Shown: positions 52,213-55,716 of the stretch, in pieces | How positions within the stretch are numbered: position 1 is the first letter of the stretch | Layout of the letters: every line of letters starts with the position of its first letter | Assembly: GCA_965248835.1 (NCBI GenBank) | Contig: CBDFLJ010000001.1 | Location: 1,568,001-1,632,000, forward strand | Source of the DNA: Alphaproteobacteria bacterium | GTDB lineage: Bacteria > Pseudomonadota > Alphaproteobacteria > MPNO01 | Direction: 5' to 3' | Length of the DNA: 64,000 nt | Translations under genes and position numbers: made by a program | Notes under the pieces: generated by a model | The model's input: only the letters and a program-made list of their open reading frames with translations | Told to the model about the DNA's origin: nothing | Databases searched by the model: none

Positions 52213-52830
52213 TTGATCGATCTATATTTCTGGACTACGGACAACGGCTACAAGGCCCGCCAGATGGTCGAGGAAACCGGGCTCGACTATACGATAAAGC
52301 CGATCAATCTGCGCGAGAACGCGCAGTTCGACCCGGCGTTCATGAAGATCAGCCCGGGCCACAAGATCCCGGCGATCGTCGATCCCGACGGGCCGGGCGG
52401 CCGCAGGCTCACGCTATGCGAATCGGGTGCGATCCTCGCTTATCTCGCCGGCAAGGCGGGCGGCGCGCTCTATCCCGAGGACCCGGCCCTGCGCCCGGCG
52501 GTCGATCAGTGGTTCTTCTTCGGCACCTCGACCTTCACCCCGCTCGCCCAGCAGTTCGGCCTGTTCTTCCACCGCTTCGGCGAGGACGTACCGCCTGCCA
52601 AGGCCCATTACGATACCGTGCTGCGCGATCTGTTCTCGATCTTCGACCGGCATCTCGCCGACCACGAGTACTTCGCCGACGCGTATTCGATCGCCGACGT
52701 CTCGTCCTATCCCGACGTCCACATCCACGGGGCCGGCGGCATCGGCTTGGCGGACTACCCCAACCTCAAGCGCTGGCACGACGCGATCGAAGCACGGCCG
52801 GCGGTCCAGCGCGCCTGGGGCGACTTCTAG
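52213..52830 (+). CDS. Glutathione S-transferase (YfcG/Nu-class-like)
   Basis: IDLYFWTTDNG.K, ISP..KIPAIVD, ESGAIL.YLA, YSIAD, RPAVQR; TTG start after AGGGAGG. Confidence 0.92.
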   Translation: MIDLYFWTTDNGYKARQMVEETGLDYTIKPINLRENAQFDPAFMKISPGHKIPAIVDPDGPGGRRLTLCESGAILAYLAGKAGGALYPEDPALRPAVDQWFFFGTSTFTPLAQQFGLFFHRFGEDVPPAKAHYDTVLRDLFSIFDRHLADHEYFADAYSIADVSSYPDVHIHGAGGIGLADYPNLKRWHDAIEARPAVQRAWGDF

Positions 52831-52881: not shown

Positions 52882-52915
52882 AAAAGAAGGCCCGGAAATC
52901 ATCGATTCCCGGGCC
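52882..52915 (-). terminator. Intrinsic terminator of the minus-strand sRNA
   Basis: GGCCCGGGAAUC-GAU-GAUUUCCGGGCC (12-bp stem, one G-U) followed by UUCUUUU. Confidence 0.8.
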
Positions 52916-53080
52916 AGTATAACAGGGAGGCTTCACGTCTGGGAGACGTAGGGTCCGAAGACCCTCATCCGGCGTGCAGGACACGCGCGGATCTCGAGGC
53001 GCCTGGCCGGGCTTGCCGCGCACGCGGCTTGCGACGGCCATTCGCCATTGTTCGGCCCTATTGAATAGGGGCCGATCGGC
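52882..53080 (-). ncRNA. Putative AbcR-like base-pairing small RNA (structured core 52882-52971; 5' end uncertain)
   Basis: Minus strand: AGGGUC-UUCG-GACCCU hairpin, ACGUC-UCCCA-GACGU hairpin, single-stranded CCUCCCUGUU, terminator with UUCUUUU tail; lies directly downstream of the vtlR/lsrB-like gene. Confidence 0.7.
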
Positions 53081-53085
53081 GTTCG

Positions 53086-53129
53086 ATTCTACGGAGTTTT
53101 TTACATTTCAGACATGCGCTGAACGCATG
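53086..53129 (-). promoter_or_regulatory. Putative LysR-activated promoter: -10 TAGAAT plus T-N11-A palindrome
   Basis: TAGAAT (53091-53086), weak -35, perfect inverted repeat CATGCG-CTGAA-CGCATG (53113-53129). Confidence 0.55.
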
Positions 53130-53153
53130 GCTCGTGGTATCCACAAGCAATCG

Positions 53154-54047
53154 TCAATAAATTCCGCCGGATGCGACGCTGCTGACCAAGAAATCGCGAA
53201 ACGCGGTGATTCGCTGCGAATGGCGCAGCTCCTCAGGGTAGACAAAATAGATGTCGAAGGCCGGCCCCTCCATCTCCGGCAGGACCGGGACGAGGTCGCG
53301 GGCGAGTTGGCCCAGATAGTCGGGCAGCGAGGCGATCCCGAGCCCGCTGGCGGCCGCCCGGTACATGCCGTAGATGTTGTTCACCCGCAGCACCGGGCGG
53401 CGCGGCGCGCGCGAGTCGCGCCCTGCGGCGAGCATCCAGTTGATCTCCGAGTACGGTGGACGGATCGTCTCGTCATAGGCGATGAGCTGATGCCGGTCGA
53501 GTTCGTCCAGCCGGTGCGGCGTGCCGAATTTGTTGAGGTAGGACGGCGCGGCGAAGGCGTGGTGGCGCATCGTCGCCAGCCGCCGCTGGATCAGATCGGA
53601 TTGACGCGGCGGGGTCATGCGGATGGCGACGTCGGCCTGACCCATCAACAGGTCGAGCTCGTCCTCGCTGACCACCAACGTCACCGAGATCTCCGGATAG
53701 GTCTCGATGAATTCCCGGAGCCGCTCGGTCAGCCAGATCGAGCCGAAGGCGACCGTGGTGGTGATGCGCAGCGGACCCTTGGGCCGGTCGCGCGACTCGC
53801 TGACCATCGCCTCGGCCATGGCAAGCTTGGCAAACACCTCCTTGGCCGTCTGAAAGAGCGTCTCGCCGGTTTCGGTCAGCCTGAGCCCGCGGGCGTGGCG
53901 ATGGAACAGCGGCGCGTTGAGGCTGCTCTCCAACGCGCCGATCTGGCGGCTGACCGAGGACTGAGACAGGTTCAGCGACTCCCCGGCGTGGGTGAAACTG
54001 CCCGCCTCGGCAACGGCGTGGAAGACCCGGAGCTTGTCCCAATCCAT
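53154..54047 (-). CDS. LysR family regulator, VtlR/LsrB ortholog
   Basis: MDWDKLRVFHAVAEAGSFTHAG, LFHRHARGL.LTE.GE, GPLRITTTV.FG..WL, YPEELR; directly downstream of trxB as in rhizobia and Brucella. Confidence 0.9.
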   Translation of the reverse strand: MDWDKLRVFHAVAEAGSFTHAGESLNLSQSSVSRQIGALESSLNAPLFHRHARGLRLTETGETLFQTAKEVFAKLAMAEAMVSESRDRPKGPLRITTTVAFGSIWLTERLREFIETYPEISVTLVVSEDELDLLMGQADVAIRMTPPRQSDLIQRRLATMRHHAFAAPSYLNKFGTPHRLDELDRHQLIAYDETIRPPYSEINWMLAAGRDSRAPRRPVLRVNNIYGMYRAAASGLGIASLPDYLGQLARDLVPVLPEMEGPAFDIYFVYPEELRHSQRITAFRDFLVSSVASGGIY

Positions 54048-54067: not shown

Positions 54068-55030
54068 CTATTCTGCGGCGACCGCGACTTCGTGCTCGGA
54101 AAGGAACTTCTCCGCCTCGAGCGCGGCCATGCAGCCGGTGCCCGCTGCGGTGACCGCCTGGCGGTATATCTTGTCCTGCACGTCGCCGGCCGCGAACACG
54201 CCCGGAACGCTGGTCGCGGTGCTGTCGGGCTCGGTCCTGATATAGCCTTCGGCATCCATGTCGAGCTGGCCGCGGAATAGTTGCGTTGCCGGGTCGTGGC
54301 CGATGGCCACGAAGAGCCCGCCGACCGCAAGCGCGCTCGTGGCACCCGACTTGACGTTGCGCAGCCGTAGCCCGGTGACCTCGGGCGGGTCCTGGTTGCC
54401 CAGGACTTCCTCGACCACCGTGTCCCAGATCATCTCGACCTTGTCGTTCCGGAACAGCCGTTCCTGCAGGATCTTCTCCGCCCGCAGCCGGTCGCGGCGG
54501 TGGATCAGACTCACCTTGCTCGCATGGTTGGTCAGATAGAGCGCCTCCTCGACTGCGGTGTTGCCGCCGCCGACGACGCCGATCTCCTTGCCGCGGAAGA
54601 AGAACCCGTCGCAGGTCGCGCACGCCGACACGCCGAAGCCCTGGAACGCCGACTCGCTGGGGAGCCCGAGCCAGCGGGCCTGGGCACCGGTGGCGATGAT
54701 AATGGTCTCGGCCAGATAGCTATCCCCGCCGTCACCGGTGCAGCGGAACGGGCGCTGCGTCAGATCGACCTCGCTGATCAGATCGGTGACCAGCCGCGTG
54801 CCGACATTCTGCGCCTGGGCGGCCATCTGCTCCATCAGCCAGGGGCCCTGGATGACCTCGGCGAAACCGGGATAGTTCTCGACATCGGTGGTGATGCTGA
54901 GCTGGCCGCCGACCTCGATGCCGGTGACCAGCATCGGCTCCAGCGCGGCGCGTGCGGCATAGACCGCCGCGGTATATCCCGCCGGCCCGGAACCCACGAT
55001 CAGGACTTTGGCAGCGTGGTTTTGCGACAT
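54068..55030 (-). CDS. trxB: Thioredoxin reductase
   Basis: [45 protein letters not shown]. Confidence 0.97.
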
Positions 55031-55215
55031 GGCTTCTCGATCCGGGACACGGCGCACCGCCGCGTCATTGCTGCGAACAGGGCTGAAATTAGGGCCATGC
55101 CGACGCCATTTCCAGAGATCAAACGCAGCGGCCAGACTAAACTCTTGAAATATAATTGCGGCCGATGGTAATTTAATTGCGCGTTATCTGCGGCCGGAAC
55201 GGCTGGGGGGTGCCG

Positions 55216-55716
55216 ATGGCACGTGTGAAGTTCGATCGGATCGATCTGCGAATCCTCCGCGACCTGCAGGATCGGGGCAGGATGACCAATGTCGAGCTCG
55301 CCCGTCGCGCGGGGATATCGCCGCCACCCTGCCTGCGCCGTGTGCGCGCCTTGGAGGAGGCCGGCTGCATCCTCGGCTACCACGCCGAAATCGATCCCGA
55401 GTCGCTGGGTTTCGGTGTGACGGTCTTCGCCAATGTCGGGCTGCACAGCCAGGCCGAGGCCGACCTGATCGGCTTCGAGACCCTGGTCGGGTCCTGGCCC
55501 GAGGTGCGCGAGTGCCACATGCTGGCCGGCGAGACCGACTTTCTTCTGAAGATCGTCGCGACCGACTGGGATGCCTATCAGCGCTTCCTGACGACCAGAC
55601 TCACTGCGGCGCCGAACGTCTCGGTGGTGAAGTCGGCCTTGGCGGTGCGGACCTCCAAACACCGTCCGGGCGTGCCGATCGCCCTCGATGAGCCGCGCGG
55701 CACCGCTGCCCGCTGA
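55216..55716 (+). CDS. Lrp/AsnC family transcriptional regulator
   Basis: DRID.RIL..LQ..GR.TNVELA, SPPPCLRRVRALE, ECHMLAGETDF. Confidence 0.93.
   Translation: MARVKFDRIDLRILRDLQDRGRMTNVELARRAGISPPPCLRRVRALEEAGCILGYHAEIDPESLGFGVTVFANVGLHSQAEADLIGFETLVGSWPEVRECHMLAGETDFLLKIVATDWDAYQRFLTTRLTAAPNVSVVKSALAVRTSKHRPGVPIALDEPRGTAAR

Follow-up and report, generated by a model that had tools for sequence, protein, structure and literature searches.

The small RNA locus and its genes

The analysed stretch of DNA (the window; 64,000 nt) carries on its minus strand a trxB gene, a LysR-family regulator gene and a spacer, beyond which lies a convergent glutathione S-transferase-like gene. An lrp gene diverges from trxB, and the order lrp-trxB-lysR is that of Sinorhizobium meliloti. 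Within the spacer, minus-strand positions 52882 to about 53056 make up a predicted small RNA (sRNA) gene downstream of the trxB-lsrB/vtlR pair, which its sequence and that of its relatives mark as real, conserved and uncatalogued. The features of the locus are as follows.

52213..52830, plus strand: glutathione S-transferase-like gene, convergent and outside the module; the downstream neighbour varies among relatives
52882..53056, minus strand: predicted sRNA gene; primary transcript of about 175 nt, with the start taken from promoter geometry common to S. meliloti abcR1 and the end from the terminator
52882..52915, minus strand: intrinsic terminator and U tail, from a terminator scan; 12-bp stem at 52889-52915
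52916..52934, minus strand: single-stranded linker holding the anti-Shine-Dalgarno seed CCUCCCUGUU (52921-52930), which is common to SorY and SorX (Rfam alignments)
52935..52949, minus strand: hairpin H2 with a UCCCA loop; AbcR M1-like CUCCCA at 52940-52945
52950..52965, minus strand: hairpin H1 with a UUCG loop; shows two-sided changes and is missing in some lineages
52966..53056, minus strand: variable 5' region with lineage-specific hairpins; length and sequence differ among relatives
53063..53069, minus strand: putative -10 element CCTATTC, with conserved A and T columns at a fixed distance from the box
53087..53092, minus strand: putative weak -35 position, placed by column conservation at -36 to -31; TAGAAT overlaps it
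53105..53131, minus strand: LsrB/VtlR-type box; ATGC-N7-GCAT palindrome at 53113-53129, including GCAT-N3-TG-N3-T at 53105-53117
53154..54047, minus strand: LsrB/VtlR orthologue of the LysR family, 297 aa, no cysteine
54068..55033, minus strand: trxB, thioredoxin reductase (TIGR01292, 404.5 bits, cut-off 343.45)
55213..55716, plus strand: Lrp/AsnC regulator gene, divergent from trxB as in S. meliloti

A preliminary description, made from the letters of this DNA alone, had proposed an unannotated LysR-linked sRNA here, and all the sequence features that it listed were recovered at their given positions on the minus strand. The palindrome has 6-bp arms, a 5-nt spacer and T-N11-A geometry. The C(UUCG)G hairpin, the hairpin that follows it and the U-tailed terminator are all present, and the CCUCCCUGUU tract is mostly unpaired (mean about 0.7). 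The exposure claimed for CUCCCA held in part: only CCC is fully unpaired, and the first C is paired. Stretches of 96 nt and 204 nt folded better than 200 of 200 shuffles (z = -3.1 and -6.0, respectively). The 5' end of the RNA is placed to within about 2 nt, and processing to a shorter 3' form is possible. An imperfect inverted repeat at 53058-53074 overlaps the predicted -10 element and start; none was seen in congeners.

Conservation of the RNA behind LysR

The expected conservation next to vtlR/trxB was evident: in 100 of 110 related loci the seed occurs downstream of the LysR stop codon at a distance of up to 1.5 kb (duplicates included; two sets of loci overlap, and flank is limited to 313 nt or less in three of the ten misses). 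We built a model, R1, from the 24 cleanly aligned sequences, the window not among them. It scored the window at 80.7 bits, as the one copy in this genome. In a set of 150 alphaproteobacterial genomes, each from a different family, it had matches in 67, of which 13 are by construction. Among these 67 genomes, 59 had a LysR match; 40 copies lay within 600 nt of LysR and 45 within 6 kb. All R1 tallies count genome G092 as a miss. A LysR orthologue was present and the RNA absent within 2.5-3 kb downstream in Azospirillum brasilense (L224), Methylobacterium (L226) and Microvirga (L228).

The seed CCUCCCUGUU was exact in 116 of 122 distinct cores, a set that leaves out 4 divergent ones of 126. CUCCCA, which the preliminary description had described as exposed by a hairpin, was kept in 84 of the 122 and the loop UCCCA in 82; a role for CUCCCA as the main seed is not supported. 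H2 formed five pairs of five in 112 cores. The terminator took 117 different sequences across the same 122, each with a fold of 8 bp or more. RNAalifold returned no consensus pairs on an 81-sequence alignment in which terminators are poorly aligned, and covariation was therefore counted on the named structures. H1 showed two-sided changes in five of five pairs, with 80.5% of cells paired, and H2 in none (both counted on 81 of the 126 distinct cores); the terminator showed them in four of eight pairs (24 sequences chosen for clean alignment). Compensatory change was thus found for H1 and the terminator and not for H2.

The slot behind LysR and the RNA itself vary in several further ways. Other C-rich RNAs occupy the slot at L142, L144, L166, L171 and L172 (opposite-strand suhB, AbcR-like or cuckoo-like loops). 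Loci L041-L043 and L143 (Minwuia) carry a second seed copy about 40 nt upstream of the first in the same RNA. In many lineages (L023, L025, L035, L037, L039, L041, L043, L045 and L148) a TGC-N3-GCA-type inverted repeat follows the predicted start directly. The window lacks this repeat, which may represent a 5' hairpin or a PhaR/AniA-like operator. Sequence resembling mobile elements stands directly after the terminator at L012, L013, L088, L106, L107, L218 and L219. With one phage integrase as query and 0.6-2.5 kb of flank, a weak test for an integration hot spot, none of 150 bacterial loci had an integrase relative behind the RNA.

An LsrB-type box and predicted promoter

LsrB is reported to bind GCAT-N3-TG-N3-T at -61 to -49 of abcR1 (PMC8844928). 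The window matches this motif at the same distance, -61 to -49. In both sequence and spacing the palindrome agrees with the published LsrB box, whose consensus we took from PMC7486931 and PMC8844928, and the reading of it as a LysR-type site beside the sRNA stands as a predicted binding site. The TAGAAT at 53086-53091 fared differently. When 157 distinct loci were aligned on the box, conserved columns appeared at -36 to -31 and -13 to -7, as in S. meliloti; these columns place the -10 element at 53063-53069 and the start near 53056, with TAGAAT falling at -35, and predict a transcript of about 175 nt. TAGAAT as the -10 element, as first proposed, was accordingly rejected. It is also not kept in the two congeners, and a scan for consensus sigma-70 promoters gave 0 sites.

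When the spacer was shuffled 2000 times, a palindrome of the 6-5-6 type arose in 181 cases, so that the palindrome alone is within chance and gains significance through its conservation and fixed spacing. The strict form ATGC-N7-GCAT is present in 82 of the 157 distinct loci. In 151 of them the score of a box matrix exceeded that of all 20 shuffles, the matrix having been trained on these same loci. With a matrix from 116 other loci, the window site ranked first genome-wide (25.0 vs 19.5). The box was kept by 14 of 20 RNA copies away from lysR and by a Tistrella copy 4.8 kb downstream. At one locus (L302, genome G197), by comparison, the RNA lies directly behind trxB, the box is absent and the genome has no LysR match, possibly a joint loss of regulator and site. 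Since the box stays with displaced copies and is missing where LysR is missing, its distribution indicates that it belongs to the RNA gene and not to the 3' end of lysR. Taken together, the conservation of seed, terminator, promoter geometry and box bears out the proposal of an unannotated conserved sRNA gene.

The regulator is an LsrB/VtlR orthologue without cysteines

Compared with solved structures, the window LysR protein matched PDB 9HH1 at E 1e-91, with the next structure at 1e-32; 9HH1 is the LsrB of Agrobacterium tumefaciens (PMC11975290). Nine LysR proteins (including the ones from S. meliloti, Shinella, Paracoccus and the SorY-carrying genome) all had this gene as their best match in the window's genome, by a margin of more than 60 orders of magnitude. 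The 9HH1 match, the reciprocal best hits and the lrp-trxB-lysR order together agree with the earlier identification of the gene as the LsrB/VtlR orthologue.

Such orthologues (E ≤ 1e-60) occurred in 88 of 151 genomes, one genome per family. The lineage of the window is non-rhizobial, as had been supposed, with Defluviicoccus as its nearest named relative (86%). LsrB has been called unique to Rhizobiales (PMC11975290), whereas trxB-vtlR has been said to show good conservation across the class Alphaproteobacteria (PMC7486931); by sequence, LsrB is not confined to Rhizobiales, in agreement with the latter and contradicting the former. Our LysR tree is midpoint-rooted and weak at deep nodes, and gives no order of events.

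The redox cysteines of rhizobial LsrB, C144 and C273, have no counterpart in the window protein, which has zero cysteines, and among 71 aligned orthologues the two columns hold Cys in 7 and 3 proteins, respectively. Because the window protein is cysteine-free and Cys is rare at both columns, the thiol switch was probably gained in the rhizobia.

SorY is the closest characterised RNA

At gathering score, Rfam gave 0 matches in the whole window. The best weak matches, all below cut-off, were SorX, a betaproteobacterial toxic sRNA, suhB and SorY. SorX (RSs2461, RF02784) was the highest, at 22.8 bits (E 0.0027; cut-off 46.6), and relatives reached 41-46 bits. For SorY (RF02651) the window scored 15.3 bits against a cut-off of 111, which also excludes close relatives scoring 57-88; a genome-wide SorY search gave no match among the 150 of 1880 candidates scored. 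In pairwise comparison, only 17 of 2000 shuffles scored as well as the core against SorY, and the score against alpha-r8 was at chance level. With model R1, SorY-type RNAs scored 22-37 bits, and the score of alpha-r8 was about 17.

Position adds to this likeness. In one genome the LysR orthologue, a reciprocal best hit, is followed at about 170 nt by a SorY that passes the cut-off (115 bits, cut-off 111) and has the same palindrome; SorX proper sits at another locus in that genome. Behind the LysR of Paracoccus denitrificans and of Pseudorhodobacter stands an RNA that exceeds the SorX cut-off, and in their family the seed was found in 29 of the best 30 of 61 loci, mostly with the box. SorY (RSs1543, Rhodobacter sphaeroides) thus shares with the window RNA a place behind an LsrB/VtlR orthologue, the upstream palindrome and a single-stranded CCUCCCUGUU before ACU and the terminator. 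It differs in its length of 83 nt, against about 175 nt predicted here, and in the hairpin before the seed. SorY loci also have a CTTGAA-type RpoHI/RpoHII -35 element that the window lacks, and the RpoH-type promoter of the Paracoccus/Pseudorhodobacter-family loci lies 11 nt further from the box than the window's; regulation therefore differs. SorX has the same seed and terminator start, but derives from the ompR-1 3' UTR (PMC8625941), whereas the gene upstream of the window RNA is LysR.

With alpha-r8/MmgR/SuhB/SisA-D (RF00519), the window shares the layout of hairpin, CCUCCCU, ACU and terminator, but it matches only 7 of 10 positions of the alpha-r8 10-mer UUUCCUCCCU (PMC12559287). A LysR has been reported to activate suhB in Sphingopyxis (bioRxiv 10.64898/2025.12.09.693200). 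The window scored 16.5 bits with RF00519 (cut-off 41), and alpha-r8 adjoins an N-formylglutamate amidohydrolase gene, which the window RNA does not. A true alpha-r8/MmgR lies elsewhere in this genome, at C1:21069-21142 (L229; UUUCCUCCCU present, 51.7 bits), beside a GNAT gene; its neighbour is presumably a formylglutamate amidohydrolase gene.

These comparisons point to SorY as the closest characterised RNA. By seed and position we classify the window RNA as a SorY orthologue, AbcR1-like in its wiring and a member of neither Rfam family.

Core and SorY-type sequences in phages

The 18-nt core was found in seven viral contigs and is internal in five of them. These five phage-internal copies have neither lysR nor the box and lie beside replication, recombination or terminase genes where the neighbours could be named. 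Core and terminator occur together at L216:2904-3001, L217:2969-3048, L220:2951-3047, L261 and L263; the L216 copy stands between a DnaB region and terminase genes, and the L220 copy beside NinB/RusA genes. The SorY-type 17-mer was present in 26 viral contigs (L268-L293), compared with 1 for the reversed control, and a hairpin and U tract follow it directly on the 3' side in 21 of 25 complete viral copies (17 of 21 after merging identical ones). Several phage SorY-type copies follow the major capsid gene, and some have promoter-like sequence of their own. The L271 copy lies between endolysin and integrase; this one and the similar L287 may be attachment sites.

Relation to AbcR

The preliminary description had regarded the RNA as a sequence-divergent equivalent of AbcR. 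This was right as to slot, box and wiring and did not hold at the level of sequence. Like AbcR1/AbcR2 (alpha-r15, RF02345), the window has the order lrp-trxB-lsrB-sRNA and the same box sequence and spacing, and both RNAs combine CUCCCA in a loop with a second, single-stranded anti-Shine-Dalgarno seed. AbcR carries two motifs, M1/aSD1 and M2/aSD2 (PMC5461406, PMC8844928). M1/aSD1 (CUCCCA / CUCCUCCC) sits in the loop of the first hairpin; in the window, CUCCUCCC is absent and CUCCCA falls in a loop of 3-5 nt, in the hairpin that precedes the seed. M2/aSD2 (GUUCCC / UUCCCCUC), between the hairpins, is missing, and the linker reads CCUCCCUGUU instead. The window RNA is also single-copy, lacks the middle hairpin and stands under a regulator without redox cysteines.

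Model ar15 (RF02345, cut-off 40 bits) found nothing in the region at E up to 10, nothing in the genome at E ≤ 1 and nothing above cut-off over 150 genomes. As controls, it scored 110 and 106 bits in S. meliloti, and S. meliloti and Shinella each gave two strong matches behind lsrB. In the other direction, R1 returned nothing at E up to 1 on four AbcR copies from S. meliloti and Shinella. Pairwise, 924 and 1207 of 2000 shuffles scored as well as the core against AbcR. A two-motif AbcR pattern had 10 matches in 401 genomes, and none of the five compared with LysR lay beside it. On these sequence comparisons, different anti-Shine-Dalgarno RNAs occupy one slot behind LsrB.

Common descent from one ancestral RNA, with the window RNA a diverged but true AbcR (alpha-r15) homologue and its loop CUCCCA the inherited M1 seed, is a possibility that we nonetheless rate well below even odds. 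The gene slot, box and spacing are those of abcR1, and in both RNAs a CUCCCAG-bearing loop precedes a second seed, which is single-stranded. Two loci also speak for this view: the tandem copies at L148 (G095) combine an AbcR-like loop with a SorY-type seed, and L144 has an AbcR-like 5' loop. The blank ar15 and R1 searches, the absent M2/aSD2, the chance-level pairwise scores and the loss of the loop in about one third of cores count against it, and L148 itself is marginal against AbcR (73 of 2000 shuffles). Such an origin would be compatible with the main mechanism set out below and would differ from it only in ancestry and in the weight given to the loop. At L148:2114-2904, two to three tandem RNA copies follow LysR, at least two of them with a box of their own.

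Proposed function and alternatives

The best explanation of the locus is a trans-acting, probably Hfq-dependent SorY-type sRNA with its own promoter, to which we assign a probability of about 0.8. The adjacent LsrB/VtlR orthologue would bind the palindrome at about -75 to -49 and activate a weak promoter of the sigma70/sigma32 family, yielding the RNA of about 175 nt. Because the regulator has no cysteine, its signal would probably be a metabolite and not the thiol switch of rhizobial LsrB. The unpaired CCUCCCUGUU seed would pair with ribosome-binding sites of the GGGAGG type and block translation, and the UCCCA loop would be at most a second, dispensable seed. SorY represses takP, the mRNA of a TRAP binding protein, in an Hfq-dependent manner and through its seed region (PMC4615379). 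Hfq is encoded in the window's genome. By analogy with SorY and AbcR, from which the target class is taken, the targets would be mainly mRNAs of nutrient uptake and carbon metabolism (TRAP and ABC binding proteins, as for SorY with takP), and silencing of transporter mRNAs, as the preliminary description had it, is plausible.

We examined the leaders of 106 binding-protein genes, mapped from six Pfam families on de novo gene calls whose starts are imperfect. Leaders that contain GGAG numbered 63 for binding-protein genes and 1515 for other genes. In these two groups, respectively, the seed complement AGGGAG was present in 22 and 149 (p = 1.6e-7), the canonical AAGGAG in 2 and 119, and the loop complement TGGGAG in 7 and 60 (p = 0.015), all in statistics for which paralogues are non-independent and many motifs were tried. 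By duplex energy, the top 100 for the window linker held 4 of the 106 binding-protein genes (2.5 expected), and those for the genome's own alpha-r8 seed held 11. The leader signature is thus not specific and could belong to the separate alpha-r8 RNA. The genome is rich in TRAP/ABC binding proteins (60 DctP matches, 23 Peripla_BP_6 and 15 TAXI). As a conserved target, pdhC was rejected: its motif occurred in 2 of the 18 RNA-bearing genomes and in 0 of the 12 that lack the RNA.

Three other accounts of the transcript carry less weight. Through the near-invariant 19-nt stretch formed by the right arm of H2 and the seed, the RNA could be chiefly a sponge or ligand, with a protein, Hfq or another RNA as partner, instead of a broad silencer of mRNAs. 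The letters of the H2 stem are indeed conserved without covariation, beyond what pairing would require; the target analysis yielded no conserved mRNA; and a sponge relation has been described for the related alpha-r8 RNAs (PMC12559287). Yet the RNA has the arrangement of SorY, an invariant anti-Shine-Dalgarno core followed by a U-tailed terminator, and SorY has a validated mRNA target; we think this role improbable. It is slightly less probable still that the region does no more than supply a trxB-lysR mRNA with its 3' UTR and terminator, with the palindrome serving otherwise and the sRNA a processing product. SorX is made by 3' UTR processing (PMC8625941), and the end of lysR here has only a weak hairpin, which would allow read-through. 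Against this, the box and -10 element stay with copies far from lysR, at least two of the tandem copies at L148 have a box of their own, the SorY genome has a separate hairpin between lysR and the box, and a terminator has no need of an invariant seed. Finally, a 27-codon frame with an ATG directly after the predicted start (within 52966..53056) could encode an arginine-rich peptide of 27 residues. Its frame, start and sequence are conserved in none of six relatives, two of them congeners; we rejected this frame and give the coding reading hardly any credence. A SorY-type sRNA with its own promoter remains the reading that we prefer.

Discussion

The literature that we searched held no description of the motif, of a link between VtlR/LsrB and SorY, of Rhodospirillales sRNAs of this kind or of the phage copies; the SorX paper, Nuss 2010, Berghoff 2009, Lagares 2016, Eisfeld 2021 and supplements lie outside this scope. 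The position of SorY behind an LsrB orthologue with the palindrome was found in this analysis. The main text of the SorY paper (PMC4615379) does not contain the word LysR, and earlier literature may mention the neighbour. Earlier literature may also list these RNAs as remote alpha-r8 homologues.

Their shared position suggests that AbcR1 in rhizobia and SorY in Rhodobacter answer to the same ancient regulator. More speculatively, a module of LsrB plus sRNA could be ancestral to most Alphaproteobacteria. The uncatalogued RNA would then be its oldest and widest form, SorY a Rhodobacterales derivative rewired to RpoH, and AbcR a replacement in Rhizobiaceae; phages would have repeatedly captured the seed and terminator and would express them without the regulator to shut host uptake or load Hfq. 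We hold this scenario tentatively and consider it, as a whole, unlikely to be correct in full.

The findings have several consequences for the family. SorY, known as an RpoH-driven stress RNA that singlet oxygen induces, is predicted to be also under the control of an LsrB/VtlR orthologue. The analysis supplies a missing Rfam family whose near-invariant core recurs in 67 of the 150 families sampled, and the cysteine-free LsrB orthologues offer a way to look for the regulator's effector. The phage copies of a host sRNA seed, if functional, would represent an unusual way of controlling the host.
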